This document shows positions 1 to 14,524 of a DNA stretch of 14,524 nucleotides, piece by piece. The DNA is from a virus (taxonomy: Duplodnaviria; Heunggongvirae; Uroviricota; Caudoviricetes). Position 1 is the stretch's first letter, and the number at the start of each line of letters is the position of its first letter. Both the position numbers and the translations under genes were made by a program. The notes beneath the pieces are model-generated. The model was given only the letters and a program-made list of their open reading frames with translations. It ran no database searches and was not told the DNA's origin. The stretch lies in IMG/VR virus record IMGVR_UViG_2718218128_000007, positions 1 to 14,524 of that record. One strand, 5' to 3'.

Positions 1-669
1 TTACGATGCCATCCCCTTTTTGGTTAAAGGTTTCGCAGGATTCCCAAACACAGTCACTCCAGCTGGCACACTTTTTGTAACGACGGCTCCCATTCCTATA
101 ACTGCCCCATCCCCAATGATAATTGGTCTTTTAGGAGAACCCTGTTTTATAACTGCACCCGCCCCAACATATACGTGATCACCAATAACAACGCTTCCAT
201 TACATTTAACACCCGGAGCGAAGGTAACATAGTCCCCTATAATGCAATCATGGGCAACATATGAATATATATTCGCATGGAAAAACTTACCTATTTTTGC
301 ATCCGCTGTGACACACGTAAAAGGGCATAGGATGGCACTATCATGAATATCACTAGATTCATATTGAATACTGTGATGTCCTTTAATGGTAAAGGGGACA
401 GCACCAGCCGCCATTAACATTGAGGCTATCCTTTCTCTAACTTTACTATCACCAATAGCGACATTAAAGAACTTGTTATCATAATCAGATTCACAGAACT
501 CCTGTGGAGATAGAACATCAATTCCAGAAATTTGCTTACTTTCAGAATTCTCAACAATAAATACTAATTTATAACTATCATGAAACGGTAGTTCATCGAA
601 CATGAACTGAACTAAAGGTGCAACTTCACGACCAAAACCACCTGCACCAACAATCCCATAGATATCCAT
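1..669 (-). CDS. NeuD/PglD-family hexapeptide-repeat (left-handed beta-helix) sugar O-acyltransferase; likely accessory/moron gene
   Basis: ORF 1..690 (-). N-terminal Rossmann-like segment MDIYGIVGAGGFGREV is followed by repeated hexapeptide-like [LIV]-G-x-x-x-x units (IGDYVTFAPGVKCNGSVVIGDHVYVGAGAVI ... IGDGAVIGMGAVV). The track start at 690 is a TTG; I prefer the in-frame ATG at 669, which has a GAGGG Shine-Dalgarno a few nt upstream. Stop codon is at 1..3, so the gene is complete. Confidence 0.7.
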   Translation of the reverse strand: MDIYGIVGAGGFGREVAPLVQFMFDELPFHDSYKLVFIVENSESKQISGIDVLSPQEFCESDYDNKFFNVAIGDSKVRERIASMLMAAGAVPFTIKGHHSIQYESSDIHDSAILCPFTCVTADAKIGKFFHANIYSYVAHDCIIGDYVTFAPGVKCNGSVVIGDHVYVGAGAVIKQGSPKRPIIIGDGAVIGMGAVVTKSVPAGVTVFGNPAKPLTKKGMAS

Positions 670-904
670 AACACCCTCAGACATTATCAATTTTAGATAT
701 AGTATGTCCTTGGCGTAGATTTCTCAAGAGTGTAAACAAGGGGGGAGACTTATGCTGGAAACTTGGGAAAAAGCGACTGTTATTTTGTTCAGTAAACACC
801 ATGTAAACTCACTGCCAACTGGCAACCATTCAATACTCACACCATCGAACGGACTTCAACTGACCGCGACCTGTTTCTTCATTCTCGGATAGCGGCATTC
901 ATCT

Positions 905-1492
905 TTATGCTGGTTTTGCTGGCCAAGTGATGTCAGGTGCTTTCGATGTATCGACCTCCTGAAGTGCTTTAATGTACCAAATCCACGCAATCAGACTCGT
1001 CTTATCTTCGTCGCTAATGATTCCCAATTGCAGTTCAGTTGTCCAGAAACTGATCTTTTCCTTAGCTTTTACCAATAGAATAGCTTTTTGCTTATCAGCC
1101 ACTTCAACATCAGCTGCATACTTAGCATTTGGGTCTGATACCCACTTTTTCCCATCCCATTTCTGGAACGGATCAGAAGGAGCAATATTGGTATAGCCAT
1201 TATTAATAGGACCAATATAGTCGATAGTATGAGGCATACCGTCAGTAGTTGAATAAACTGTCTTACCTCGATGGTCTTCTTTCAAGACCCATCCTCCATT
1301 TTCGAATACAGCAACCTTTCCTGTTAGTTCATTACCCGGATCAATATCGGTAGAATTACCCGGCATACTGACGCCAATATTAATATATTCGTCTGACCAT
1401 CCTATATATTCAAAAGTTACTATATCGTAGTAATAGCAGCGGATTTCACCCGGTTCCGTTGCCAGTCCATTTTCATCAAAAACAGGTTTCAT
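905..1492 (-). CDS. tfa: phage tail fiber assembly protein (Tfa chaperone)
   Basis: 195-aa ORF with blocks typical of enterobacterial Tfa proteins (EDHRGKTVY, QKWDGKKWV, C-terminal VDTSKAPDITWPAKPA). Its ATG overlaps the stop of the upstream tail fiber ORF (TAATG on the minus strand), implying translational coupling. Confidence 0.8.
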   Translation of the reverse strand: MKPVFDENGLATEPGEIRCYYYDIVTFEYIGWSDEYINIGVSMPGNSTDIDPGNELTGKVAVFENGGWVLKEDHRGKTVYSTTDGMPHTIDYIGPINNGYTNIAPSDPFQKWDGKKWVSDPNAKYAADVEVADKQKAILLVKAKEKISFWTTELQLGIISDEDKTSLIAWIWYIKALQEVDTSKAPDITWPAKPA

Positions 1493-2250
1493 TATTTAGC
1501 CCTTACTAAAAAGTTAAATGTGATATTGCGGGGACGTGTTTCGTTGCCTCCAGGATTTTGGAATGCAGGTAAAGCTCCCCCTATCGGCTGACTGATTCCG
1601 TTGGTATATAAAGGAGCTGCATTCGATATTGTACCAAACACTACATTGCTACCATTTCCGCTTGTCCCTAAAAATTTATGCTCATGCATTTTGAAGTCAT
1701 CTGCTTGTGCAGAAAGTAAGGTTCGCCCTCTATCCACCCCGCGCCCATCATCCCAGATACGAATAAAATCACCCCGTGCGTCAGGTAATGCTAGCGCCGG
1801 AAACACTTTCGCCAGCACAGGGTAATCAGTGGCAGAGAATTTCGCGCCGTTGAACTTCAAAAACACCATACTGGACCAACTGTCGATTACAGTATTTGGC
1901 ATTGCGGCGGACGGCCAGAAGAACGGAACGCCAATAGCTGGAGCACCTTCTCCCAAACCAAGATTTTCGAGAGCCGTTTTCACCGTGCCATCCGATTTGA
2001 TATCACCAAACGGATTCTTGCGGCTTAACAGCAGAGCACGAAGCGCGGTAAGCAACTGGTCGTTTCGCCCCTTCTCCAGGCTGGCACCGGATGCCTCCAC
2101 CACGCTGCAGAGTTCTTCCTGCAACATATCAAAGTAGTCATCATCCAGATCGGTGGCAGGTGTGCCAGTCTGGGGGTTACCACGGGTAAAACCGTTCTTA
2201 CCCGCGCCGAACTTATCCTTCTGCGCGGTTTTCGTGTCTATACGATGCAT
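1492..2250 (-). CDS. phage tail fiber protein (distal receptor-binding type), possibly a truncated remnant
   Basis: 252-aa ORF immediately upstream of and coupled to tfa; Gly/Asn/Ser-rich C-terminal half ending [11 protein letters not shown], as in Stf-like fibers. It is short for a lambdoid side tail fiber and is preceded by an in-frame TAA that separates it from the terminase-like ORF. Confidence 0.55.
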
Positions 2251-2253
2251 GGA

Positions 2254-2874
2254 TTACTCCGGATATTTAAAAATTACGTAGGTATGCGACGGGCAGAGTT
2301 TGTTAAGCACACATTCGACAACGGTGTCGCCCCAGATACGCAGCGCGGAATCACAGGGATCGCCACATGTCATCCAGGTGGTGTTTGTGGCGGCTGGCAT
2401 GTTGACCTGCCAGTAATACCGCCATTCCGGCGCATTCACCGCGTCAGAACAGGCCGATGAGCAGGTGAACGTGCTTTTGTCGTATCGCGTGATGGTAGCC
2501 TCCTGTTCTTTTTTGGCGGTCAGCTCCGGATTTTTGACCATACCGCCCATTGCACCGGTGATGGTGTTGCCCTGTCTGGCAATATTTTTCACGGCACGTC
2601 GCCAGAACTCGTAGGCCACGCACCACCGCTCAAGCACCGCGAGGTCAGTCACGCACAGCAGGCCCTGACCGCAGAGTTCTTTGGTTGTCAGTTGCCACAT
2701 GATCGTAGCGAGAGGGAGATCTTCTTCAGCGAACCACTCCGGTGGCTCAACACCTTTGATGGGCGTAAAAACAGGTTCATCTTTGTTCAGGGCTCGCTTG
2801 CCGGGGTTTCCGGCCAGCGCCTTGCGCGCCGTTGGCTTGGGGCGACGCCCGGAACGCCCCGCCGTTCCAGCCAT
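2254..2874 (-). CDS. terminase small subunit, P27 family (N-terminal about 135 aa), with an atypical Cys/Trp-rich C-terminal tail; probable deletion remnant
   Basis: N-terminus [36 protein letters not shown] matches the conserved P27-family TerS start. The track start at 2883 is GTG; an ATG at 2874 is preceded by an AGGAG Shine-Dalgarno. The last about 70 aa ([40 protein letters not shown]...) do not resemble a TerS C-terminus. Confidence 0.55.
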
Positions 2875-2913
2875 ATGCGGCACTCCTGGTTAAATTTCAT
2901 TTTTCGCGGGTAT

Positions 2914-2972
2914 AAAAAAACGATGGGGCGGGCAGTCCTGAAGGCGTCAGGTCACAGGGATTTGACCCGCCC
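2914..2972 (-). other. GC-rich nested inverted repeat between HNH and TerS genes; candidate cos/packaging-site structure or intrinsic terminator
   Basis: GGGCGGG (2926..2932) pairs with CCCGCCC (2966..2972), enclosing an inner hairpin CCTGA-aggcg-TCAGG (2937..2951). On the minus strand the outer stem is followed after 5 nt by a T7 run (complement of A7 at 2914..2920). Confidence 0.3.
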
Positions 2973-2998
2973 TCCCCTCTGGCAGTGGAAACTGGTTC

Positions 2999-3349
2999 TT
3001 ACTTCAGCCGTTCACGGGCCGTCTTCGCCTTATGACACGGCCAGCACAGACTCTGCAGATTACAGTCGGCATCAGTGCCGCCATGCGCTTTAGGGATGAT
3101 GTGGTCAACGGTTTTCGCTTCACGCACCACACCGGCACGCAGACATAACTGACATAAACCTTTGTCACGTTTCAGCACACGCGCGCGGATAGCGTCCCAC
3201 TTCGAACCGTAGCCGCGCTGATGACGGGACTGGCCTGGCTTGTATTGCTTCCAGCCTTCGCTTTTGTGGCTTTCACAATAGCCTGACGAGTCAGTGGTGG
3301 TATGGCGGCAGCCGCGAACGCGGCAGGCTTTTGGGGTTCGTGGGGGCAT
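2999..3349 (-). CDS. HNH endonuclease (phage terminase-associated type)
   Basis: Cys-rich HNH signature CRVRGCRHTT...CESH ... VDHIIPKAHGGTDADCNLQSLCWPCHKAK. It sits directly upstream of TerS, the standard HNH-terS arrangement in cos-type phages. I prefer the ATG at 3349 (MPPRT..., GGAG Shine-Dalgarno) over the track start at 3418, because a terminator-like hairpin lies between the two. Confidence 0.75.
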   Translation of the reverse strand: MPPRTPKACRVRGCRHTTTDSSGYCESHKSEGWKQYKPGQSRHQRGYGSKWDAIRARVLKRDKGLCQLCLRAGVVREAKTVDHIIPKAHGGTDADCNLQSLCWPCHKAKTARERLK

Positions 3350-3360
3350 GCTGGCTCCAA

Positions 3361-3383
3361 TAAAAAGCCCCGCGACGCGAGGC
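3361..3383 (-). terminator. putative rho-independent terminator after the small membrane protein gene
   Basis: Minus-strand RNA GCCUCG-CGUCG-CGGGGC (6-bp stem including one G-U pair) followed by UUUUUAUU, about 30 nt after the stop at 3415. Confidence 0.4.
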
Positions 3384-3414
3384 TTAGACAGAAAAAACAC
3401 CGGATAAGATCTGG

Positions 3415-3618
3415 TCATTCTTCCTTTTTAATAATGACTTCTCGAGGGCGCAATTGTTGGATAGCACGACAAATACAATATGGAATAACTGCCCATGCTA
3501 CTCCCATTGCTGCACCTGCAGCCTGTTGTGGAGCACTCTGAGCACCGAAAACCCCGAGGATTCCTTCAATAAATCCAATAGCACTACACAAAAGACTGAT
3601 GACCCAGAGAATTTTCAT
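3415..3618 (-). CDS. small hydrophobic membrane protein (two predicted transmembrane segments), function unknown
   Basis: 67-aa ORF MKILWVISLLCSAIGFIEGILGVFGA...AMGVAWAVIPYCICRAI with a charged C-terminal tail. A strong AAGGAG Shine-Dalgarno lies about 9 nt upstream of the ATG, and the region is AT-rich. Confidence 0.45.
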   Translation of the reverse strand: MKILWVISLLCSAIGFIEGILGVFGAQSAPQQAAGAAMGVAWAVIPYCICRAIQQLRPREVIIKKEE

Positions 3619-3735
3619 AAACCTAAACTCCTTTTAAATAAACACTTTACTAGGATAATTCTCATAAAATGTTAGTAAAGTATTTTCAGGAAAATAGCGT
3701 ATCACTGCCTATTTTTGACACTGATGCTGGGATAA

Positions 3736-4110
3736 TTATTCCGGTCGCTGGAGTTGCTCATGATGATACAGAGCGAGAATCAGGTCATAAGACCCTTGCC
3801 TGTCTTTGTAACCAGTTTTATCAACCAATTCAGCTTTACTGATTCCGGGTAAATCAAGAATCAGATTCGCAACTTCAATTGCCCTTTGGTACAACTTACC
3901 GCCCTTTTTCTCCCCATGCAGTGGTTTTACATTCTTGAGGTAACCGCTATCCGCCAGGGCGAGAAATGTTGCCCTTGGGCATATCTTCTTTCTTGACGAT
4001 TCGCTTTCTGTAACCTCTGCGACAGCTGCATCCCATGCATCACGAGGAGGCATTGAGCTATCAGCAACCAAATGATAAGCGATTAAAGCGGCGCGCGCGT
4101 ATTGAGACAT
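3736..4110 (-). CDS. hypothetical protein (accessory gene downstream of Rz)
   Basis: ORF 3736..4161 (-). The track start is a GTG that overlaps the end of Rz; the in-frame ATG at 4110 (MSQYARAALIAYHL...) is more plausible. I recognise no family from the sequence. Confidence 0.4.
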   Translation of the reverse strand: MSQYARAALIAYHLVADSSMPPRDAWDAAVAEVTESESSRKKICPRATFLALADSGYLKNVKPLHGEKKGGKLYQRAIEVANLILDLPGISKAELVDKTGYKDRQGSYDLILALYHHEQLQRPE

Positions 4111-4148
4111 AATGCATCCATATACAAAAATCTCATGATAATACTTTT

Positions 4149-4592
4149 CTAATATGAACACTGTGATCTCACATACTCTTGCAGGCCATTCAATTGGTTA
4201 GTTATGGTTTCGATGCGCTCTCTGAGAACGAAATAATCTCGTTGAGCGGTGTCAGTAAGTCTGGGGCTGGAAGCATCATCCACGCCGGAGGCGGCGGTGG
4301 TTTTATGCATGTCCGGACAGACTGCTTTGACGTGCAGCCACTTACGACCAGCAGAAACATCAGCACGAAGACTTTCGATAGTCGCGTTAGCATCAGCAAG
4401 CTCCTTTGTATATCTGGCATCGAGTTCAGCTACATTACTTTGACGTTTCTGTATGTCAGCGATAATGGATGCGGCCTTATCGCGCTGCTTTTTGTAGGTG
4501 ATGGCGTTATCACGGTAATGATTAACCGCCCATGACAGGCAGACGATGATGCAGATAACCAGAACGGAGATAATCGCGGTGACTCTGCTCAT
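4149..4592 (-). CDS. Rz: Rz i-spanin (inner-membrane spanin), lambda-like
   Basis: 147 aa; N-terminus [34 protein letters not shown] is near-identical to lambda Rz as I recall it. Its start overlaps the R stop (ATGA), and it carries the embedded +1-frame Rz1. Confidence 0.9.
4202..4393 (-). CDS. Rz1: Rz1 o-spanin (outer-membrane lipoprotein) embedded out of frame within Rz
   Basis: ORF 4202..4420 (-) lies entirely inside Rz in another frame. It has a signal peptide plus lipobox ([20 protein letters not shown]) followed by TSKQSV...[10 protein letters not shown], matching the lambda Rz1 pattern. Start is placed at the ATG at 4393. Confidence 0.8.
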
Positions 4593-5065
4593 ACCTCAAT
4601 CTCTCTGACCGTTCCGCCTGCTTCTTTGAATTTTGCAATCAGGCTGTCAGTCTTATGCTCGAACTGACCATAACCAGCGCCAGGCAATGAGGCCCAGATA
4701 TTACTGCAACGGTCGATTGCCTGACGGATGTCACCGCGATCAATCATTAGTAAAGCGCCACGCTCCTTAATCTGCTGCAATGCAACAGCATCCTGGCTTT
4801 TAGGAGAGAAGTCTGTCAGCCCTAACTGCTTGCGGTAAGCATCCCACCAGCGTGAAAGAAGTTGATAACGGCCTGCGGCTGTTGATTTGAGTTTCGGGTT
4901 TAGCGTGACAAGTTTTCGAGGGTGATCGGAGTAATCAGTGAAGAGTTCGCCACCGACAATAACGTCATAACCGTGGTTACGTGTCGGTTGTCGCCCGTTA
5001 TCCGTTCCTTCTGACCAGGCCACCATATCAAGGAAAGCTTTACGCTGAGGATTTAGTACCTGCAT
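4589..5065 (-). CDS. R: endolysin R, lambda-type lytic transglycosylase
   Basis: 158 aa, [45 protein letters not shown]..., near-identical to lambda R as I recall it. AAGGAG Shine-Dalgarno upstream of the ATG. Confidence 0.9.
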
Positions 5066-5068
5066 AAA

Positions 5069-5404
5069 TTACTCCTTCGAGCTACCAAATTTGTTACCGA
5101 TTACTCGCATTGCAGCCCCACGAATAGCATCGACACCGATCAGCCCAACGCCGCCACCAATGGCAACAGAAAGAGATTTAGGCCATCCGACATACTCAAG
5201 AGCGGATGCAAAAGTCAGCGTCAGAGCACCACAGAGCAAAATCTCGAGCGTTTTTCGCTTCCAGCCACCACCACCGCCAAAATAGGCAATGCGCAAGCCA
5301 GCCATAACGATCGACATAATCACTGCGCCCAGCGGTGTGTCTCCACGCCACCAGCTCTGAAACAACTCCAGCCAGTCCGGCCAGGTATTTGGGTTATGAG
5401 GCAT
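5069..5404 (-). CDS. putative holin
   Basis: 111-aa ORF immediately upstream of R, with hydrophobic segments (GAVIMSIVMAGLRIAYF, LEILLCGALTLTFASAL, LSVAIGGGVGLIGV) and a GAGGTGAGAG Shine-Dalgarno. It does not resemble lambda S, so the call rests on position and hydropathy. Confidence 0.55.
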   Translation of the reverse strand: MPHNPNTWPDWLELFQSWWRGDTPLGAVIMSIVMAGLRIAYFGGGGGWKRKTLEILLCGALTLTFASALEYVGWPKSLSVAIGGGVGLIGVDAIRGAAMRVIGNKFGSSKE

Positions 5405-5545
5405 TTGTAGTTATCTCTCACCTCGCTGATACAGCAGGTGCAAATTGAGGAAACATCATGTTCCGCAAATCAGAAGCGGAAACGTCAAAGAAGCCGAGTC
5501 AAAGGATAACTGCGGGATAAACCAAGCCCAACGAACAACCAGGCC

Positions 5546-5578
5546 CAGAAACGACAAAACCCGCTCATCGGCGGGTTT
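5546..5578 (-). terminator. rho-independent terminator upstream of the holin (tR'-like position)
   Basis: Perfect 8-bp stem AAACCCGC (5557..5564) / GCGGGTTT (5571..5578) with a 6-nt loop; on the minus strand it is followed by UUUUGUCGUUUCU. It lies between the moron start and the holin start. Confidence 0.5.
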
Positions 5579-5670
5579 AAGCTGTGTGGCGAAGTAACCA
5601 CTCTTAACACATTACATGATAAAATGCGGACCGCGTTAGTAATATTTTTCTCATATATTGGGTTCACTAC

Positions 5671-6417
5671 ATGCGACATAATTTTTCTAAAGACACTATA
5701 AAAAAATTAGCAGAGCGGGCAGCATTCATTTGTTCAAACCCTTCATGCCCTAGATTGACCATTGGCCCATCAATTGATGGCAATAAATCAATCAAGACAG
5801 GAGTTGCTGCTCACATATGTGCAGCATCTCCTGATGGCCCACGCTATGACATGTCACAATCAGAAACAGAAAGGAAGTCAATTAACAATGGCATATGGCT
5901 GTGTGCTACTTGTTCTGTATTAATAGATAAGAATCAGGGGCTAGACTATCCGGCACCTGTATTAAGAAAATGGAAAAAAGATCATGAAAGCCTTATAAGC
6001 TCCTGTCTTGAAGGTTCGATTAATATTACCTTCGATGCTTTGAAATATATTCAACAGCATGATGAAAGAAATCTGGCAAAAAAGATTATAAATGAATTGG
6101 ATGATAAAGGGGCTTTGTTCGTAGAATATCATCTTGAAAACCCCTGTTTTGTTGCCGAATCACTCAAAGAGTTAAGAACATGTTTGACCTCTTTGCTTTC
6201 TCAAATCCCAGATGAATCACCTCTATTTATCGTTTGCAAGTCAATTCGAGAAGCATGCCGTTATTATATGAACAACACTTCTAAAGACGCAGGGATTAAA
6301 GAGTTAGAATTTTCGTTGGGAGCGGTCAGAAAAATCGTAGGTATCAACGTTAAAAGAATATCAGAAACCTACGGGGTTAAACCTAGCCCACAATTATCTA
6401 CCATAATGCCAGATTAA
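5671..6417 (+). CDS. AT-rich moron encoding a 248-aa protein with an N-terminal HNH-like (His-Me finger type) Cys/His motif and an uncharacterised C-terminal domain
   Basis: Long ORF on the strand opposite to all flanking genes. Motif: CSNPSCPRLT ... GVAAHICAASPDGPRY ... ERKSINNGIWLCATCSVLIDKN, i.e. CxxxxC ... AHI ... N ... CxxC, with Ser where the final His is usual. Sampled 60-nt stretches are roughly one-third GC, against roughly half or more in neighbouring genes. A terminator follows it. Confidence 0.65.
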   Translation: MRHNFSKDTIKKLAERAAFICSNPSCPRLTIGPSIDGNKSIKTGVAAHICAASPDGPRYDMSQSETERKSINNGIWLCATCSVLIDKNQGLDYPAPVLRKWKKDHESLISSCLEGSINITFDALKYIQQHDERNLAKKIINELDDKGALFVEYHLENPCFVAESLKELRTCLTSLLSQIPDESPLFIVCKSIREACRYYMNNTSKDAGIKELEFSLGAVRKIVGINVKRISETYGVKPSPQLSTIMPD

Positions 6418-6426
6418 ATCTGTTAC

Positions 6427-6469
6427 GCAGCAACAAAGTTAAACTCTATGTTGCTGCCTTAATTTTATT
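6427..6469 (+). terminator. rho-independent terminator of the moron gene
   Basis: Perfect 9-bp stem GCAGCAACA (6427..6435) / TGTTGCTGC (6449..6457) with a 13-nt loop, followed by CTTAATTTTATT on the plus strand. It sits between the moron stop (6417) and the convergent Q stop (6468). Confidence 0.55.
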
Positions 6470-6830
6470 ACTCCATTTCTAAACGAATATCCAGCATCGA
6501 GAGACAACCATCTATAAACCCTTCAGCCAACTGTATCTCTATACGTATCAATTTCTCATCTTTTTTGTATGCTTTTGCTATCTTCCTTTTCGAGATGCCA
6601 TACAGGTAATGAGCCACAATCAGAGAGTGCTCATACGGTTTTCTCTTCTTAAGAAGAGCAAGACAACCTTCAATAATTAATGCATCACTATCTGAACAAG
6701 CCTGACGTGTTTTGCTTGTATAGGGAAGAAGCCCTTTAAACCCAGCAGCTATAGGAGAATAGTCTACTCCAGAACTATCACTCGCCGCCCATGCTCCCCA
6801 ACGATCCAGAACCATCTGAATATCACGCAT
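6468..6830 (-). CDS. Q: late-gene antitermination protein Q (Phage_antitermQ type, as in phage 21 / DLP12-like elements)
   Basis: MRDIQMVLDRWGAWAA...IAAGFKGLL...ALIIEGCLALLKK...LAEGFIDGCLSMLDIRLEME matches my recollection of the small Q-type antiterminators. The track start at 6845 is TTG; the ATG at 6830 has a GGAGAAA Shine-Dalgarno. Operon position is upstream of the lysis genes. Confidence 0.75.
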   Translation of the reverse strand: MRDIQMVLDRWGAWAASDSSGVDYSPIAAGFKGLLPYTSKTRQACSDSDALIIEGCLALLKKRKPYEHSLIVAHYLYGISKRKIAKAYKKDEKLIRIEIQLAEGFIDGCLSMLDIRLEME

Positions 6831-6847
6831 CAACTTTCTCCACAAAA

Positions 6848-7171
6848 TCAGGCCAGCACACCAGTTGCCAGCGCACGATCGATAAAACGAAATATCAGCT
6901 CCAGTTGGGAGCCATACTTCTCTTCAAATGCCACGGTACCCTGGCGACGCGCCTTACGCGTTAACCAGCCTTCTGCTTCCAGCCGTGCGATAGCCGTTCT
7001 GACGGTACTCATCCCCGCGCCAATCTGACGGGCAATGGTTTCAATTGATGGCCAGCACACACCTTCGTCATTACTGAAATCAGCCAGGCGGGCCATAATT
7101 GCCACGCTGGATAATTTCATGCCTGACGCAGCGCAACCATCCCATACATAGCCGGTTAATTTAGTGCTCAT
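6848..7171 (-). CDS. winged-helix/HTH DNA-binding protein, possibly the N-terminal remnant of a replication-initiator-like protein
   Basis: 107 aa with an HTH-like segment LSSVAIMARLADFSNDEGVCWPSIETIARQIGAGMSTVRTAIARLEAEGWL. Its start overlaps the end of the upstream frameshifted gene and its stop abuts the Q start. Confidence 0.45.
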   Translation of the reverse strand: MSTKLTGYVWDGCAASGMKLSSVAIMARLADFSNDEGVCWPSIETIARQIGAGMSTVRTAIARLEAEGWLTRKARRQGTVAFEEKYGSQLELIFRFIDRALATGVLA

Positions 7172-7519
7172 GACCGACCTCTATTTCCCTGAATTTACGA
7201 CGAAACTGTTCGAGCGGGCTGAAGCACTCATGCTCATAGCCTTCACGGAGGTAGATAACCCGTTGTGTTTCCGGCTCCCAACGAATAACTCTGACGGGCA
7301 CTCCGTAGTGATCTTTGAACCAGCGGTTAACTTGTCGCAAAGGACTGTCTCCTTCTGCCGGTTGAAATCACCCACAGCCCACTCTGCAAAGCTGTGGGTT
7401 ACAATTTCCCTGTCACCTGGTACATTCACTGCATAGCAATATTCCACCTTCGCTTTTCCACCCGGTACAGGAAGCGCAATCAGTTGCGAGCGACGGTAGT
7501 GTGTTGTTAAACTGTTCAT
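7161..7519 (-). pseudogene. frameshifted gene of unknown function (two reading frames needed to span it)
   Basis: The frame from the ATG at 7519 gives [52 protein letters not shown]..., then degenerates into low-complexity sequence ending at 7181. A second minus-strand frame is open from 7367 to a TAA at 7161..7163 and reads as ordinary protein (...[61 protein letters not shown]). That second frame overlaps the HTH gene start by 11 nt in the usual coupled manner. This implies a single-base indel near 7330..7367. Confidence 0.4.
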
Positions 7520-8085
7520 GCGTTAGTTTCTCCACAACCAGAAGCAATCGACGCCACGACGCCCGGAGCTGCACACTCGCGGGCGTCATTACTTTCTGAA
7601 ATGCAAAAGATTTTGTAGACCAGTGCTGCATGCTCCTGCAGCTTCGAAATTGAGAGATACAGCTCGTCGTTAATTGCTGTCTTCTCATGCGGTTCCACTA
7701 CACCGTCTTCGATTGCTGAACGAATCTGTTTTGAATAACTGCCGATCTGTTCAATGACTTCCAGCAGACGCTGGTTAATATCGGCGTTGTCCACATCCTC
7801 GACGTCAGGAAGAGACACAAAGACGCCATTTGCAGACTGCGCCACAGCATCAGCAATGAAGTGAGTGCCACCAGCACGCTGTAAAACCATTGCCCATCCC
7901 AGCGGGAAAATCTGATCGCCATCTGCACGAAGGCGGTTGAATAAAGCGTTTTCTGTTACATCGAGCCAGTCAGCCGCTTCAGCGTAACCCCCCGGCAACG
8001 CCGCGATAGTTTTTCTGACAGCTTTCACGTACCACTCAGGCTGTTTTTCTATTTTCCAGTGATGCTTACCCACGATTAGCCTCAT
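7516..8085 (-). CDS. putative phage early regulatory protein (possibly CII/CP76-like); family assignment uncertain
   Basis: ORF 7516..8199 (-). The first 38 codons from the ATG at 8199 look non-coding (Arg/Ser/Phe-rich, over an AT-rich promoter-like region), so I prefer the ATG at 8085 ([25 protein letters not shown]...). Neither start has a clear Shine-Dalgarno. It heads the minus-strand early operon, divergent from the DUF551/AlpA pair. Confidence 0.35.
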
Positions 8086-8275
8086 CGTTCTGTGGTTAAA
8101 AATTGAAAGTGTTCTGCTAATCTTTCGGATAGATAATTGGCTGGCGTTCTCTCTGGTACACCTGGGGACAAAAAGAAACCGGAGAATGGCAGTGGACATT
8201 TCAGGTCGGGGACCTTGAAAACGTCAATATCACTCACTGGGCAGTAATGCCAAAAGCACCGGAGGCTGGAGCATA

Positions 8276-8896
8276 ATGACCACTTTTACCGACAAAGAAC
8301 TGATTAAAGAAATTAAAGAGCGTATCAGCAGCCTTGACGTGCGAGACGATATTGAGCGCCGTGCTTATGAAATTGCTCTGGCATCGCTGGAAGAGGATCC
8401 GGTGGCATGGCTGCATTCAGACAATGGCTTAGGTATTCCGGCAATAACGAGGAGTAAAAACATTGCTGACAGTTGGTTATCAAAGGGCTGGTATGTTCAG
8501 CCGCTATATATAGCCAAGCCAGTGCTGGTGGTGCCAGATGCTCGTCCGTCTTTAAATAATGGCATAGTCGGTTTTGATGAAGGCTGGAACGCCTGCCGCG
8601 CCACCATGCTTCATGGTGCCAAACCTGTAAGCCAGACTTACAAGTTGAACAAGCTATCGGGCAACTCTCCGGTAACTCCGGATGGTTGGATAAGCTGTAG
8701 TGAGCGAATGCCGAATGATAAACAGTATGTTTGGTGTTGGGGTAAGTCTTACGGCTGGACTGAGTACGATACCTTCGAAGGGTATTACGATTGGTCGAGA
8801 AACAAATGGTGGGCAGTTACTGACGATGGGGAAGAACCGGCATCGAAAGTAACCCACTGGATGCCGCTACCGGAGCCACCGCAGGAGGTGAAGTAA
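8276..8896 (+). CDS. DUF551-domain prophage protein
   Basis: C-terminal Trp-rich block DGWISCSERMPNDKQYVWCWGKSYGWTEYDTFEGYYDWSRNKWWAVTDDGEEPASKVTHWMPLPEPP is characteristic of DUF551. GGAGG Shine-Dalgarno upstream; stop overlaps the next gene's ATG (TAATG). Confidence 0.65.
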   Translation: MTTFTDKELIKEIKERISSLDVRDDIERRAYEIALASLEEDPVAWLHSDNGLGIPAITRSKNIADSWLSKGWYVQPLYIAKPVLVVPDARPSLNNGIVGFDEGWNACRATMLHGAKPVSQTYKLNKLSGNSPVTPDGWISCSERMPNDKQYVWCWGKSYGWTEYDTFEGYYDWSRNKWWAVTDDGEEPASKVTHWMPLPEPPQEVK

Positions 8897-9090
8897 TGAA
8901 CAACTTAATGACAACTAAACAAGTCGCCGACTTCTGTGGCGTTTCAGTATCGACCGTTCTTCGCTGGAACAGCGTAAACAGGAGAACTGGCCAGAAATAC
9001 AGGCCTGACTTTCCAGATCCTGATATTAAATCCTGCCCAAATAAATGGGCATCACGCAAGATATACAGGTTTGCTGGAGTTATTGAGTGA
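8896..9090 (+). CDS. AlpA/excisionase-like small HTH DNA-binding protein
   Basis: 64 aa; LMTTKQVADFCGVSVSTVLRWNSVNRR fits the Xis/AlpA-family HTH pattern (T-x-K-Q/E-V-A ... G-V-S ... T-V-x-R-W). GGAGGTG Shine-Dalgarno; translationally coupled to the DUF551 gene. Confidence 0.55.
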   Translation: MNNLMTTKQVADFCGVSVSTVLRWNSVNRRTGQKYRPDFPDPDIKSCPNKWASRKIYRFAGVIE

Positions 9091-9125
9091 TGGGTATTAG
9101 ATCATATCAGAACTAATACCCATCA
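9088..9125. repeat. 13-bp perfect inverted repeat (hairpin or protein-binding palindrome) at the boundary between the xis-like gene and the SIR2 cargo gene
   Basis: TGATGGGTATTAG (9088..9100) and CTAATACCCATCA (9113..9125) are exact reverse complements separated by 12 nt. No U-tract follows on either strand, so it is not a classical intrinsic terminator. Confidence 0.5.
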
Positions 9126-9292
9126 ATGACACAGAGCCAACTACCCACCCTGTGTCAGGGGCTAACTTTTAACACCATAATTCACCGCTAGATAAAAACT
9201 GTATTGCATTGCACGAGCGGCGCAGCATTATCAGTTAGAGTGTCTTTACCTTGTTAGGCTCCACAGTTCGCACTGTCCAACGCCTGTCACTT

Positions 9293-12200
9293 TCACACGC
9301 TGCGCCTTCGAGAATATTCATTTAATCGCTGATAACGAACATCTTGCTCCAGTTGTGGAGCAGCTTGAACAATTTGAAGCAAGCATTGCCCCAACTCTCG
9401 AGGCCCCCAGTGTTGGTCGGCAATCACGGCATTCAGCAGGGATAGAGCGTCCGCAGGATATCGGCTGCAAATATCTGATTTTAGCAAAAGGCGAACGTCG
9501 TAGCTAAGGTGTTCGAGCGGTTGCAGCCAGTCCTGCACCACTGCCAAAGCCGCCGGAAATTCACCTCGGGCAGCAATCACCATACGAGTCAACGATTCGG
9601 ATATGCGTGGGGTGGCCAAGTTGCGGGACTTTGGCCAAACCTGTTGCCAAAATGGCTGGACACGATTTTTCCAATACTCCTCGCGCTGATCGCCCGCACC
9701 TTCAAGTGCCTGGTATAACGCCTGCGCGGCTACCTCCAGACCTTCTTGTGGAAGAGCACTAATTGCCGTTCGGAACTCCTCCACGGTATATCCCTCGGTA
9801 GGGCCCAGAGCTGCATAAGTCAGGAAAGTAGCGAATTGCTGCCGGTGCTCGCCAAGATCAGAATAGTGATTGGCGCTCTCCAAAAAATCTGACTTGAAAG
9901 CTATCAGCAACGGTTCATACAGGCGTGGCGACCAGAGGAAGCCTTCCCACACAGCTTGTGCTTCGACGGGATTACTCCAAGCAAACAAGGGCAATAGATA
10001 CTGTTCGGTCCAAGGTCGATCTACGCGAAAAAATGCGATCAGCCGCGACCCCAGCAACACCCGACCATGGCGGAATAGCTCTATCTGTACATTACACAAT
10101 TTGGTGAAAAGTGTTTTCAATTCAACAGGAAGCAAATCATTGTCATTCGGGTTCTGTTTGAACCATAGGGTGATCAGTGATTGCGTGACATGCCCAATGG
10201 GATGATTGATCGCCGTAGAAACAGGATCATAGGTCTCAATTCCGTTTCGAATGGTGCTAGACTCTGGGCTTGTTTCTATCATCAGAACCCGACGACAAAG
10301 GGCCAGTAGAATCTCCTCGTGGCAGAGGATGGGCTTCGAAGCCTCCTCCATCCACCAAGTGACAGCGTGGGAAATCTCCTGAAGTACTGCGTCAGGCATG
10401 TCAAGCACCAACGGTGCGGCGTACCGCCACGAACGCAAAATCATCCCTGGTTCAGCCCAAGTCTGCAGAGCTTCACGCCACCGACCAACAGGCCACACAT
10501 CATCTTGTGATAGTTTACGTAACGCATACAGACTGTGAAAAAAGCGCGTACGGCAAACATCACTCCAAGTGTCCTCATAGAAAGGCAGTCTTTCTGGCAT
10601 AGGCTTTGCGAGCCATTGCACTAATTCCTGCCACTTACGGGGCGCAATGTCGACATCTATACTCTCCTCGAAGCCTGGATCACCGGTTCCGCTCATCCAG
10701 TGAGAGAATTCATCACGCTCGTTGGTTGCCAGTTGCCATTTTGGGTATGCTGTGGATATTTCCGTCAAACGTGTAGCCGCAGACTCTCCCAAAACAAGGC
10801 CCGCTCCCCTGAGCTTCGCTAGACACAACCAGACGGAATGAGCCACCAAATAATGCCACCTGTCTGCTTCCAAATTATCCTCGTACATCTCGCGCGGAGG
10901 CCCTGCCAAGATAGCAGTTTCCAGACGCTCTTGTGCAATTCCTGTCAGATGTCGTCCCTGCAAAACAAACAGTCTGAATACCTCTCGCCCAGTATCCGTG
11001 GCCCACAACCACCATGAACCGTCCTCTAACAACCAATTAACCCACCGCTCAGGTGGTATGCAGTTGTCTTGGCTTGCGGAAAACAGTGCCAGACGTTTGA
11101 AGGTGGGATATGGCAACTCAAACCAATTCTGAGCAATGCGCGTGGCCTGATCGCTGTCTTTGGCTCGAACGGCTAACCATGAATCCCGAAGTAATTCAAT
11201 CAGGCTCACCCAATCGCGGAACCCCCGGTTCTGCCAGTGCGGAGTGATGGACGGCAAATCCCAATGCGAGCGGTCGTGACGATCGTCGGACTCTCCCAAC
11301 TCCCGCAACAAGTCCAGTGCATCACGCAACAACTGCTGAAAATCTTCCAACAGGTATGGCAAGGACGATTTCCATGACTCGTCAGCAAGGTCGAACAGGG
11401 TTGAACGTACGTAATCAGCAGTCAGCACCAGCTCCCAATCCACCAATTGCTTGATTCGCAAGGGCTCATCAGTGCTGCTCGAATCGTCTTCACTATAGCG
11501 AAACGGCCGCCTCAACATAACCTTGGGAGAAAGCAACTCGCGTAACTCCAAACGCAATGTAGTCGTCAAGCCTTCATTCTTTAAGCGGTTTTGCCAACGA
11601 TACAAATCCAGGTTCTGCAATGGCGATTTCACACGACCACTAAGCAGAAGCCGCCATAAAGTAGACATAGGTGGACCAGGAATAGCCAGGGGGGAATGCA
11701 AGAGAATTTCATCTAACTCAGAAGTCTTACGCTCCCGCATCAGTGCTGCTAAGCGATCTAGTTCGCTCTCAATCAGAAACATCCAACGGTCGTGTATTTG
11801 TCCGCCGCGTTCAGCAATCCATATGATCAACCTAGGGTCGCCCAGATAACGAACTAGCCAACGGGCTATATGGGACATTACGTCATCCCATTTGCTAGCA
11901 CTGACACATCCAGAAACCAGCGACATCTGCGGGGCTAGCTCATAGGGCGCAGGACGCTGAACCAGACTGAATCGGAGTTTCGGGTCAATTTCGACATGCG
12001 GAGATACACAAAAGCGTGGCAGATCGCTGTATTTAAATCGTTCGTCCGAGAAAGCTTTCAATAACCAATCCAGCGGCGGTGCAGGATTGAGTTCCGCAAA
12101 ACATTTTGCTGGTAAACCTGACTTATCAGATAAGGCCCACATCATCCGACCAACGAAATCGTCCTGCCGAGTGCTATCCTGCGGGCGGGCCAGAGCATGT

Positions 12201-13120
12201 TTGACGACAATGGCTTCTTTGCCTTGTATACCATCGCGATAAATATTTGCCCAAGCACGCAATGTATGGTGCATCGCTGAATGATCATTGGAGTCCGCCG
12301 GTACGGTGTAAAGGATGGGGGTGACCCCCTTGGCCTCCCACTCGATAGATTTCCGGTGCTCCTGCCCCGGCTCACATTCTCCTAGTGCCCATACTTGCGG
12401 CGTGACTTCACCGAGCCTCCGATCTGCTGCCAGTGCGTCCATCATATAGCGTAGCACCGGGTCGTTGATGCTGTAGCCCACGAAGCAGACCACGTAGTTA
12501 CGGAACAAGTCACTTACAAAACGGGCAGCCCAGCGTTCCGTGAGATAGGCTAAGCCAAAGTCTCCACTAGTGACAACCAGACGATTCAGAGCAGTATCGT
12601 CTGTCTTTTCCGGTAACAACCCATGCAGGTAGACTATTCCGTCCCAGCGACTATTTTTCGGAATTGGCAGCATCGGCGCTACATAAGCCTGAAACGCTTG
12701 GGCCGTGCGTTTAGCTGCCACATGAAATAAGCGGTCAAAGTTGGTAGTAACTAACCGAAGGGCACCATCGCGACTACGCGCCAAACGCAACAGCGCCATC
12801 TGAGTATCAGTTGCGCCTCTATAGTGAAGTTTTGGCTTAAGGGCTTGTTCCAGCGCGCGACGGACGGCTATACGCTGTCCCGGTAGGCGCCGTTCCAACA
12901 AATCCAATGTGGCGTCGAACTGACCGCGCTTGAAGGCCTCACACTCAATTTCTGAAAGTGTTGTTCCGTTCAACTGGTAAATCCGCTTTACCAATCCCTT
13001 GAAACCTGGCAAACCAGCAGGGTAGGAAATGCCTGCCCCGCAGAAGAACACCACGCGGCCTTCCTCGTGCGCCTGCAAAAGTTCATCCGGAATATCAGGG
13101 CCGTTGGTGATAAATTGCAT
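9293..13120 (-). CDS. large single-gene SIR2-domain protein (defence-associated sirtuin-like): N-terminal SIR2 NADase-type domain plus about 1000-aa Trp-rich helical C-terminal region; candidate anti-phage/abortive-infection effector
   Basis: 1275-aa uninterrupted ORF with a strong Shine-Dalgarno (AGGAGGAAAAGGA) before the ATG at 13120. N-terminal motifs of the prokaryotic SIR2 family: VVFFCGAGISYPAGLPGF (NAD-binding GAGIS-type), LVTTNFDRLF (Asn 127), IVYLHGLL (His 165, 38 residues after the Asn) and CFVGYSINDP. No Walker A/P-loop is visible. Located between the integrase and the xis-like gene. Confidence 0.8.
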   Translation of the reverse strand: MQFITNGPDIPDELLQAHEEGRVVFFCGAGISYPAGLPGFKGLVKRIYQLNGTTLSEIECEAFKRGQFDATLDLLERRLPGQRIAVRRALEQALKPKLHYRGATDTQMALLRLARSRDGALRLVTTNFDRLFHVAAKRTAQAFQAYVAPMLPIPKNSRWDGIVYLHGLLPEKTDDTALNRLVVTSGDFGLAYLTERWAARFVSDLFRNYVVCFVGYSINDPVLRYMMDALAADRRLGEVTPQVWALGECEPGQEHRKSIEWEAKGVTPILYTVPADSNDHSAMHHTLRAWANIYRDGIQGKEAIVVKHALARPQDSTRQDDFVGRMMWALSDKSGLPAKCFAELNPAPPLDWLLKAFSDERFKYSDLPRFCVSPHVEIDPKLRFSLVQRPAPYELAPQMSLVSGCVSASKWDDVMSHIARWLVRYLGDPRLIIWIAERGGQIHDRWMFLIESELDRLAALMRERKTSELDEILLHSPLAIPGPPMSTLWRLLLSGRVKSPLQNLDLYRWQNRLKNEGLTTTLRLELRELLSPKVMLRRPFRYSEDDSSSTDEPLRIKQLVDWELVLTADYVRSTLFDLADESWKSSLPYLLEDFQQLLRDALDLLRELGESDDRHDRSHWDLPSITPHWQNRGFRDWVSLIELLRDSWLAVRAKDSDQATRIAQNWFELPYPTFKRLALFSASQDNCIPPERWVNWLLEDGSWWLWATDTGREVFRLFVLQGRHLTGIAQERLETAILAGPPREMYEDNLEADRWHYLVAHSVWLCLAKLRGAGLVLGESAATRLTEISTAYPKWQLATNERDEFSHWMSGTGDPGFEESIDVDIAPRKWQELVQWLAKPMPERLPFYEDTWSDVCRTRFFHSLYALRKLSQDDVWPVGRWREALQTWAEPGMILRSWRYAAPLVLDMPDAVLQEISHAVTWWMEEASKPILCHEEILLALCRRVLMIETSPESSTIRNGIETYDPVSTAINHPIGHVTQSLITLWFKQNPNDNDLLPVELKTLFTKLCNVQIELFRHGRVLLGSRLIAFFRVDRPWTEQYLLPLFAWSNPVEAQAVWEGFLWSPRLYEPLLIAFKSDFLESANHYSDLGEHRQQFATFLTYAALGPTEGYTVEEFRTAISALPQEGLEVAAQALYQALEGAGDQREEYWKNRVQPFWQQVWPKSRNLATPRISESLTRMVIAARGEFPAALAVVQDWLQPLEHLSYDVRLLLKSDICSRYPADALSLLNAVIADQHWGPRELGQCLLQIVQAAPQLEQDVRYQRLNEYSRRRSV

Positions 13121-13306
13121 TCCTTTTCCTCCTATCCAATGTGGATATTCATTCGAGCAAATTAGGGGACAATGGGGCTACAGATTATTAGACCGACTAT
13201 GCAAACACTGCTTCCTTGCAAGCTACCCTGATCTAGCCAAATCACAATGTCCGCTCTCCTATCAAAGCAAACGGCTAGATTTGATTGTATTATGGCTACT
13301 CAAGGA

Positions 13307-14524
13307 TCAGTTAGAGTCTGAGCAAGTAATTATCGATTCAATCCTCTCCCACCATGCCAAGTAAGCTTTACGCTGTTCTTCTAGATAATCGCTCTTATCA
13401 TAAACTTGCCATACCCCTGGCAGCTTATGACCAAGCATGATTTCTGCGATATGAGGCGCAGTAAGATCAGAAAAATTTGTTCGTGCTGTCCGTCTCAAGT
13501 CATGAAGAGACCAATGAGGGAATTGATACCCAAAACGCCGCCATGCGTATTGCATTAAATTGTAAGGTAGCGACTGCAAGGATGTCCGACCAACTGGTTC
13601 CCTGCTTCCTTCCTTAGTAAAAAGCATATCGGAACCGTTGTTCATAGAGATAACGTATTTTATAAGCTCTTCAACCGGTTCAATAATGGGCCGCTTTAGC
13701 GGTTCGTCTGTTATATCCCCTGTCTTATGTCGTTCTGGTGGTACAGTCCATATTTTATTAATGAAATCAAAATCGTCCACCTTGGCAGTAATTAGCTCTG
13801 AACTACGGCAACCAAAATGCAGCAATAGTTTAATGAAGGCCCGGTATTTAGGAACCATTCGAGAACCATCGATCGCAGCATAAAGGATTTTAATTTCATC
13901 ATGTGTCAGAAACCGTTTCTTCTGACCTTTACGGATATCCATATCTTTACCCGTGATATCCGACAGCGGGCGAGTTTCAATGAGCTTTCTCTTATACGCC
14001 CAGACATGGGCCTGCTTTGCGTTAATTAGCAATCGGTCTGCTATTGCTGGAGTCTTAGTGCTAAGAGGCTCCAGGACTTCTAACCAATCATGCAATGTAG
14101 CTGCATCGTGAGGGATATTCCCGATTTTAGAGAACAGGTGCAGCTCAAACGAGCGGAGTATCTGTTCAGAACCTTTTTTATTTTTTACACAATATGCTTC
14201 ATACCAAGCACGGATCACAGATTCTACCGTCATGGCTTCAGTAGCTTTACGTTTTTCTGCCAGCTTGACCAATCGTGGATTGCGGTTTGACTCGAGTTCA
14301 CCACGAAGACGGATAACTTCTTCTCTGGCCTCTTTTAGTCCAGTTGACGGGTAAGTTCCGATATCAAGACGCTCACCTTTCCCCGCCCACTGATAACGAT
14401 ATTGGAACACTACGCGACCTTTCGGTGATACTCTAACAGACAGACCATCACGATCGGATTTAACCAAAACCTTATCACGTTCCTTTCCAACGACTGAACG
14501 CAACCACGCATCAGACAGCGCCAT
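13307..14524 (-). CDS. int: tyrosine site-specific integrase (P4-like, with arm-type N-terminal domain)
   Basis: 405-aa ORF whose ATG is at the window edge (14522..14524). The N-terminus (MALSDAWLRSV...GLSVRVSPKGRVVFQYRYQWAGKGERLDIGTYP...LKEAREE) resembles P4-type integrase arm-binding domains. C-terminal catalytic-region motifs: HDLRRTARTNF and LGHKLPGVWQVYDKSDY (candidate tyrosine nucleophile). Confidence 0.85.
   Translation of the reverse strand: MALSDAWLRSVVGKERDKVLVKSDRDGLSVRVSPKGRVVFQYRYQWAGKGERLDIGTYPSTGLKEAREEVIRLRGELESNRNPRLVKLAEKRKATEAMTVESVIRAWYEAYCVKNKKGSEQILRSFELHLFSKIGNIPHDAATLHDWLEVLEPLSTKTPAIADRLLINAKQAHVWAYKRKLIETRPLSDITGKDMDIRKGQKKRFLTHDEIKILYAAIDGSRMVPKYRAFIKLLLHFGCRSSELITAKVDDFDFINKIWTVPPERHKTGDITDEPLKRPIIEPVEELIKYVISMNNGSDMLFTKEGSREPVGRTSLQSLPYNLMQYAWRRFGYQFPHWSLHDLRRTARTNFSDLTAPHIAEIMLGHKLPGVWQVYDKSDYLEEQRKAYLAWWERIESIITCSDSN

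Follow-up and report, generated by a model that had tools for sequence, protein, structure and literature searches.

We analysed a stretch of 14,524 nucleotides (nt) of viral DNA (positions 1 to 14,524 of the IMG/VR record IMGVR_UViG_2718218128_000007, referred to below as the window), which carries a defective lambdoid prophage of the SfI/HK97-like kind with its genes on the minus strand. We focused on two neighbouring open reading frames (ORFs) located between the lysis gene Rz and the packaging genes. One encodes a soluble protein of 124 amino acids (aa) of the DUF6979 family and the other, named ORF67 here, a predicted membrane protein of 67 aa. The two ORFs are almost certainly real morons that are independent of each other. 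On balance, we favour a reading in which they represent two moron cassettes stacked in a hypervariable slot between the lysis cassette and the HNH-cos-terminase region, with ORF67 perhaps acting to protect the lysogen.

A moron is an additional gene that has a promoter and a terminator of its own, deviates in base composition and is expressed from the repressed prophage (Juhala/Hendrix; PMC3594210). Morons are the main way in which prophages alter their hosts, and most of the proteins they encode have no known function. In the window we found a placement between genes that are adjacent in related phages, an own terminator and a deviant base composition. The GC content is 0.405 in the ORF67 cassette, 0.30 in the intergenic sequence upstream of ORF67 and 0.467 in the DUF6979 gene, the flanking values being 0.575 (HNH endonuclease gene), 0.571 (small terminase gene, terS) and 0.53 (holin gene). 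Both ORFs are already annotated as hypothetical in RefSeq and morons are a known kind of element, so that the novelty is modest. What had been two vague hypothetical ORFs are now two defined and separable units, of which ORF67 is the better lead, with its compact cassette, recognisable signals, large unmodelled family and near-invariant motif. The features of the two units are the following.

4138..4167, minus strand: weak sigma-70-like site (ATCACA-18-TATTAT; consensus match, 9/12) that overlaps Rz at its 3' end
3736..4110, minus strand: DUF6979 family gene (124 aa, soluble, all-helical; Pfam PF22399), the first cargo gene after Rz
3674..3679, minus strand: -35-like hexamer TTTACT, at a fixed distance to the ATG of ORF67 (column conservation 0.85)
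3658..3673, minus strand: spacer of 16 nt between the hexamers, variable (conservation 0.63)
3652..3657, minus strand: -10-like hexamer TATCCT (conservation 0.79)
3628..3633, minus strand: ribosome-binding site AAGGAG (conservation 0.83 in homologous cassettes)
3415..3618, minus strand: ORF67, predicted helical-hairpin membrane protein of 67 aa (phrog_12304; hydropathy; AlphaFold2)
3359..3385, minus strand: intrinsic terminator, with a hairpin at 3385..3365 and a T-rich tail at 3364..3359 (terminator scan)

An earlier note, made from the sequence of the window, had described the two ORFs at these coordinates and downstream of Rz, and both are present as described, on the minus strand, with Rz at 4149..4592. 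For the 124-aa ORF the start at ATG 4110 was preferred over GTG 4161, because the alignment to the DUF6979 profile begins at residue 1 and the gene annotated in RefSeq has 375 nt. Between ORF67 and homologues of 75-80% protein identity, the proportion of synonymous differences (pS) is 0.6-1.0, that is, saturated, and that of nonsynonymous differences (pN) 0.11-0.25; the ratio of nonsynonymous to synonymous substitution rates (dN/dS), where computable, is 0.06-0.12. For the DUF6979 gene the dN/dS is 0.19-0.28. Neither ORF arises by chance. The earlier note had named a lack of conservation in related elements as grounds for dropping the ORFs; both turned out to be conserved there and under purifying selection.

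The same note had taken the interval between Rz and the packaging genes as a moron site, and the related phages agree with this, since they hold DUF6979, ORF67, both, or other cargo in it; in two viral contigs (L172/L173) other cargo lies between DUF6979 and the HNH gene. The phage lambda gene bor, a lysogenic-conversion gene expressed from the prophage, lies in the slot after Rz/Rz1 and before the packaging genes, which is the genomic slot of both ORFs here. Bor differs in being an outer-membrane lipoprotein encoded on the opposite strand, whereas both ORFs are without a lipobox and lie on the strand of the late operon. With the lipobox pattern [LVI][ASTVI][GAS]C, no Bor-like lipoprotein signal was found in ORF67 (SLLC), and the DUF6979 protein has no hydrophobic N-terminus. 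A lipoprotein reading of ORF67 through Cys11 was rejected: in SLLC (residues 8-11) position -1 is taken by Leu, and the cysteine itself is not conserved.

The idea that the two ORFs form a pair, raised in the earlier note together with a co-occurrence check, did not survive that check. Among 5426 complete Escherichia coli genomes, ORF67 was found in 51, with at least 99% identity in all of them, and DUF6979 in 247, with 80-100% identity. Adjacent DUF6979 accompanies ORF67 in 18 of the 80 viral contigs that carry the latter and is missing from the other 62; conversely, 18 of the 59 viral contigs with DUF6979 carry ORF67 and 41 do not. Several cultured phages have DUF6979 alone (mEp460, 4A7, D2, 1W, 3W and Lambda_4C10), as does the E. 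coli locus L134, while ORF67 was found in only two cultured phages, Shigella phage SfI, where it is unannotated, and Edwardsiella phage Edno5. In the SfI record (NC_027339) the gene is at 37695-37895, encodes a protein 100% identical to ORF67 and is annotated neither in GenBank nor in RefSeq. The 951 bases around both ORFs show 98.1% identity to SfI and 99.4% identity to the 51 complete E. coli genomes, with the same order in intact HK97-like prophages.

Homologues of ORF67 are found at many unrelated sites. One of these lies between Rz and a terminase gene, which may be of the lambda (Nu1/GpA), the P27/HNH or another type. The Pantoea homologue lies between the tail chaperone T gene and the tape measure gene, which is the gp15 site of phage HK97. 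In Morganella and in Edwardsiella phage Edno5 a homologue directly follows the tape measure gene, in Yersinia one lies among the tail genes, and in Pseudomonas prophages homologues occur between gpK/I and gpJ as well as before the tape measure gene. A homologue was also found in a P4-like island. ORF67 has thus been captured many times by phages, recurring with its flanking signals in unrelated flanks.

The ORF67 cassette measures about 320 bp (3679 to 3359 on the minus strand) and consists of a promoter-like element, a strong ribosome-binding site, the ORF and an intrinsic terminator. The two hexamers follow the pattern TTTAC[TA]-N16-TAT[CTG][CA]T, with constant spacing to the ATG, in 41 of 49 distinct upstream sequences of close homologues, the background conservation beyond -66 being 0.47. 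The AAGGAG singled out in the earlier note as a strong ribosome-binding site is found at 3633..3628, 9 nt before the ATG at 3618. The hairpin plus U5 terminator announced there for ORF67 was also recovered, and reads AAGCCTCGCGTCGCGGGGCTT TTTATT; it forms 9 pairs, 6 of them G-C, between the stop codon of ORF67 and the ATG of the HNH gene at 3349. Of 55 distinct sequences downstream of close ORF67 homologues, 52 have a hairpin followed by a T-run, with variable loops and, in divergent members, other stems (AACCGCC/GGCGGTT). The terminator is thus present and conserved, but its type is not peculiar to ORF67: the same hairpin, GCCTCGC-N4-GCGGGGC-T5, stands directly 3' of DUF6979 in phages that have no ORF67 (L134, L136, L137, L159-L186), and this terminator type is therefore common to the cargo genes of the slot. 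Judging from these sequence signals, ORF67 is probably expressed autonomously.

Another hairpin, CAGGCATTCACTGAGTGCCTG with TGATAATG after it, is absent from the window but was found repeatedly, across genera, at borders of different cargo genes in the slot. It lies upstream of ORF67 in the loci L007, L070-L079 and L120, and downstream of DUF6979 in L014, L139 and L190-L195. It may serve as a boundary or in recombination, or act as a terminator that lacks a T-run.

Translational coupling of ORF67 with the HNH gene, through a 139-aa ORF that starts at 3418 and overlaps the ORF67 stop codon (ATGA), was considered and rejected, because the extension crosses the terminator hairpin and because both RefSeq and SfI start the HNH gene at ATG 3349, with its own GGAG.

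The earlier note could assign neither ORF to a family. The 124-aa ORF is in fact a member of Pfam DUF6979, and ORF67 belongs to PHROG 12304 (phrog_12304, 'unknown function'; E 2.1e-44, full length, 1-67 of 67). No model of Pfam, NCBIfam or PADLOC, and no holin, toxin or defence profile, matched ORF67. The description of ORF67 as a two-helix membrane protein fits the Kyte-Doolittle profile, in which residues 3-25 are strongly hydrophobic and residues 33-53, rich in Ala and Gly, moderately so. The AlphaFold2 model has helices at 2-25 and 29-56 with a mean predicted local distance difference test score (pLDDT) of 84.

Close relatives of ORF67 form 45 clusters in Enterobacterales. They are 52-97% identical to it, occur in Enterobacter, Rahnella, Ewingella, Kluyvera, Pantoea, Yersinia and Morganella, and share the invariant core SAPQQAAGAAMGxAWAVIPYC. 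An exhaustive profile search extended the family to 1121 clusters (defined at 50% identity) at E <= 0.001, of which 152 are reached at E <= 1e-10. They come from Pseudomonas, Xanthomonadales, Xenorhabdus, Spirochaetota, Chloroflexota and others, and keep the motif [SG]APQ[QE]AAxAA...A[VI]IPYC (extended: IPYCxAR). Some members, in many phyla, are fused to a zinc ribbon at the N- or C-terminus. The ORF67 family of two-helix membrane proteins is thus broad and uncurated, has no Pfam or NCBIfam model, and reaches far beyond the phage copies.

In the model that we propose, the first cassette consists of the DUF6979 gene with its soluble helical product, and the second is the self-contained ORF67 unit with a putative sigma-70-like promoter. 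In the lysogen, ORF67 would be transcribed from its own promoter up to its own terminator; during lytic growth, Q-antiterminated late transcription would read through the cassette. The protein would form a hairpin in the inner membrane and keep its N- and C-termini in the cytoplasm, a topology that we infer because zinc ribbons at either end of its relatives fit it; its charged residues are mostly in the C-terminal tail. Contact with a conserved partner would be made through the turn and the second helix, which are invariant (SAPQQAAGAA...AVIPYC). Since this part is near-invariant across phyla, a specific contact seems more plausible than generic membrane damage. ORF67 would then protect the lysogen at the inner membrane, a candidate mechanism being superinfection exclusion directed at DNA entry or at the tape-measure step. 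Such protection at a membrane step of infection appears the most likely role, because the phage-borne copies are found time and again next to tape measure and tail genes, at the site of gp15 and where the lysis genes meet cos.

The closest parallel is gp15 of HK97, a superinfection exclusion protein encoded by a moron (PMC3594210). In the HK97 record, gp15 is a moron product of 62 aa whose gene is followed by a terminator. Like ORF67, for which this location is predicted, gp15 is a small inner-membrane protein, and the genes of both form self-contained cassettes with a strong ribosome-binding site and a terminator, placed between genes that are adjacent in related phages; the Pantoea homologue of ORF67 even occupies the gp15 site. 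The proteins differ in that gp15, a member of the YebO family, has a single N-terminal helix, whereas ORF67 has two helices and another conserved motif. Superinfection exclusion by gp15 was reportedly described by Cumby et al. in 2012; exclusion has been shown for gp15 and is proposed for ORF67 by analogy only. The analogy concerns a possible mode of action and not family membership, and on this footing phage exclusion is a tentative assignment for ORF67. More speculative still is the idea that the family represents an undescribed class of exclusion or defence proteins that block genome entry at the inner membrane and were captured repeatedly by temperate phages of Enterobacterales and Pseudomonas. 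Phages have repeatedly placed ORF67 where known exclusion genes sit. Its repeated capture, together with the breadth and the motif conservation of its family, makes it a reasonable target for an exclusion assay.

Several observations weigh against this reading. The promoter is read from conservation, and its -10 hexamer TATCCT is weak; the hexamers match 8 of 12 consensus positions and were missed by a promoter scan that required 9. The terminator may be a property of the site and not of the cassette, and the Pantoea and Morganella homologues have no terminator and overlap (ATGA) a downstream ORF with a signal peptide. BLASTP of ORF67 against HK97 gp15 gave no alignment at E <= 100, no family of the PADLOC-DB v2 defence models matched either ORF at E <= 0.01, and no paper was found in the literature under DUF6979 or under the RefSeq accession of ORF67. 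The wider family also occupies ordinary chromosomal sites, for example at speA/speB in Xenorhabdus, and these sites, together with the zinc-ribbon fusions across phyla, point to a general cellular rather than a phage-specific role.

The signal-peptide ORFs downstream of these homologues are 175 or 114 aa long (Pantoea L011-L013, 5252-5779; Morganella L003, 6216-6560), and each may form with the ORF67 homologue a two-gene variant of the cassette. At the gp15 site of an intact relative, E. coli FDAARGOS_497 (L135), an ORF with a zinc-ribbon domain is found at 20455-20796, between the genes for the tail assembly protein T and the tape measure.

The alternative that best withstands the data is that ORF67 was co-opted from a bacterial family as a lysogenic-conversion factor, which would bind and tune a conserved inner-membrane complex of the host (for example a transporter, sensor kinase or protease) and would have nothing to do with exclusion. 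The size of the family (1121 clusters in many phyla), its almost invariant motif, its chromosomal members and the fusions of some to cytoplasmic zinc ribbons all agree with such a role. So does the absence of a conserved neighbour gene, which a stand-alone modulator would predict: an all-against-all comparison of the flanking ORFs at 19 loci of distant relatives revealed none. However, the phage copies are found again and again beside tape-measure and tail genes and at moron hot spots, where competition between phages fits at least equally well, and we regard a host modulator as unlikely.

ORF67 could also be a late-expressed lysis accessory. It might serve as an antiholin, adjust the timing of lysis or work together with S, R and Rz as a small pinholin-like protein with two transmembrane domains. 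In most Enterobacterales loci it directly follows Rz within the late operon, with the same orientation, and in outline it resembles class II holins or pinholins such as S of phage 21, given its size, its two hydrophobic helices, one of them rich in Ala and Gly, its charged C-terminus and its proximity to lysis genes. The lysis set of the window is nevertheless already complete, with a canonical holin and the other lambda-type functions:

5069..5404, minus strand: lambda-family holin (Phage_holin_3_1; Pfam/PHROG profile matches)
4589..5065, minus strand: lambda R-like lysozyme (Pfam/PHROG profile matches)
4149..4592, minus strand: Rz spanin, the last gene of the lysis cassette (PF03245, E 8e-39; phrog_13)
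4202..4420, minus strand: Rz1, embedded in Rz (ORF with lipobox VSGC)

ORF67 further differs from class II holins in standing after Rz instead of before the endolysin gene and in having no dual-start motif, M1 being the sole Met before residue 38. No holin or lysis profile of Pfam or PHROGs matched it. Its cassette has its own terminator and a conserved promoter-like element, and homologues are found outside lysis cassettes and far from lysis genes, in tail modules, the P4-like island and chromosomal sites. A lysis accessory is accordingly rather improbable.

Another two-helix hydrophobic hairpin with a short loop is found in the VirB2/TrbC-like pilins of type IV secretion systems (PF18895). 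The PF18895 profile scored 13.9 bits with ORF67 (E 0.059), under its cutoff of 26.6, and 16 of 37 family members showed the same sub-threshold likeness (best E 3e-4). ORF67 differs from these pilins in having no signal or leader peptide, and there were no type IV secretion genes in the contexts examined. This likeness and a similar one to DUF4282 are too weak to be used.

It is very improbable that ORF67 is a membrane-damaging toxin, that is, a type I toxin or an abortive-infection effector causing growth arrest or depolarisation. A small hydrophobic protein with a strong ribosome-binding site, encoded by an AT-rich cassette on mobile elements, would suit such a function, and the gene of one distant relative is next to that of a Pycsar-type TIR effector. 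On the other side, a single helix is usual in known type I toxins, and the loop and second helix of ORF67 are almost invariant across phyla, suggesting a specific contact. No antisense RNA family or known toxin profile was matched, and the Rfam search of the window gave no family at the gathering score, with chance-level matches only at E <= 1; an antisense RNA of a new kind may still be present. Strong purifying selection, a promoter that is apparently of the constitutive type and the lack of an obvious antidote gene also speak against a toxin.

A single two-gene module, for example a soluble sensor or regulator with a membrane effector, is hardly tenable and largely refuted already by the co-occurrence counts: the ORFs are neighbours with a common orientation in the window, in SfI and in every one of the 51 ORF67-bearing E. 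coli genomes, but that E. coli lineage is nearly clonal, ORF67 stands without DUF6979 in all examined Rahnella, Pantoea, Yersinia, Morganella and Pseudomonas loci as well as in most viral contigs, about 196 E. coli genomes have DUF6979 without ORF67, and an AT-rich spacer of 117 nt with the conserved promoter-like element lies between the two.

The protein of the other cassette is a full member of DUF6979, with no differences from the family, for which there is neither a solved structure nor literature. It matches PF22399 with E 7.3e-28 and 97.7 bits (gathering cutoff 27) over profile positions 1-126 of 127, as well as phrog_5039 with E 1.8e-69, and RefSeq names it 'DUF6979 family protein'. 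An alignment of 39 relatives revealed the invariant residues W26, A29, K42, C44, P45 and G56 and the motif SESSRKKGCPRxTFLGLCE. As the earlier note had proposed, it is soluble: the hydropathy profile gives no hydrophobic segment, the top 19-residue mean being 1.05. The AlphaFold2 model comprises 7 helices with a pLDDT of 92.9. Searching PDB sequences with the DUF6979 profile produced chance matches only, with E around 1, Foldseek against viral structures gave nothing at E <= 0.001, and the NCBIfam profile search had no match for this protein or for ORF67.

The weak sigma-70-like site overlapping the end of Rz could drive DUF6979; in the promoter scan, the sites of the region were no more numerous than in shuffled sequences. 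In Enterobacterales (E. coli, Salmonella, Atlantibacter, Leclercia) the gene lies after the lysis cassette and before at least three types of terminase, and at one Salmonella locus a remnant of the 3' end of Rz was carried along with it. Distant members adjoin Dnd-associated, SMC-like and helicase genes, another has three TIR genes, Nmad2 and a restriction-modification system nearby, and further ones are found on a small RepC plasmid and at an ordinary-looking chromosomal site. A connection of DUF6979 to defence islands is suggestive only. We consider the protein a soluble accessory factor that benefits the lysogen or the phage, and go no further than that. It may bind nucleic acid or have a link to defence, and, because its distant relatives adjoin TIR, Dnd-associated and restriction-modification genes, it may even act in defence or counter-defence as a novel single-gene system with a novel fold, an idea that is weaker than that of exclusion by ORF67.

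The slot is bordered downstream by the following genes.

2999..3349, minus strand: HNH endonuclease (PF01844, E 8e-15), the downstream border of the slot, before cos and the P27-family small terminase subunit
2254..2883, minus strand: a single ORF in which the N-terminus of a P27-family small terminase (phrog_83) is fused to the C-terminus of a baseplate wedge protein (phrog_203, Mu Gp48-like)

The order of an HNH gene followed by the terminase is also annotated in intact E. coli prophages and in SfI. The fusion ORF at 2254..2883 indicates that the large terminase, the head and most of the tail genes have been deleted, and this deletion from the terminase to the tail renders the prophage defective.

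The remainder of the window holds further cargo. A full-length gene for the defence-associated sirtuin Dsr1 was found at 9293-13120 on the minus strand (NCBIfam NF041818, 2051 bits; PADLOC Dsr1). It adjoins the tyrosine integrase gene at the end of the prophage (13307-14524, minus strand), and is a defence gene carried as prophage cargo. On the opposite strand (5671-6417, plus), between the Q-like antiterminator region and the holin gene, lies an ORF of 248 aa with a GC content of 0.38. Its N-terminus matches HNH-type nuclease effectors of defence systems (PADLOC PDC-M68A, E 7.5e-27; also CBASS/SAVED-HNH effectors and SduA), and it is probably a further moron of the defence type. At the other end, positions 1-690 (minus strand) hold a gene for a sugar acetyltransferase of the NeuD/PglB/VioB family, just past the tail fibre and tail-fibre-assembly genes, which may either belong to the prophage and modify surface polysaccharides or mark the point where the host flank begins.

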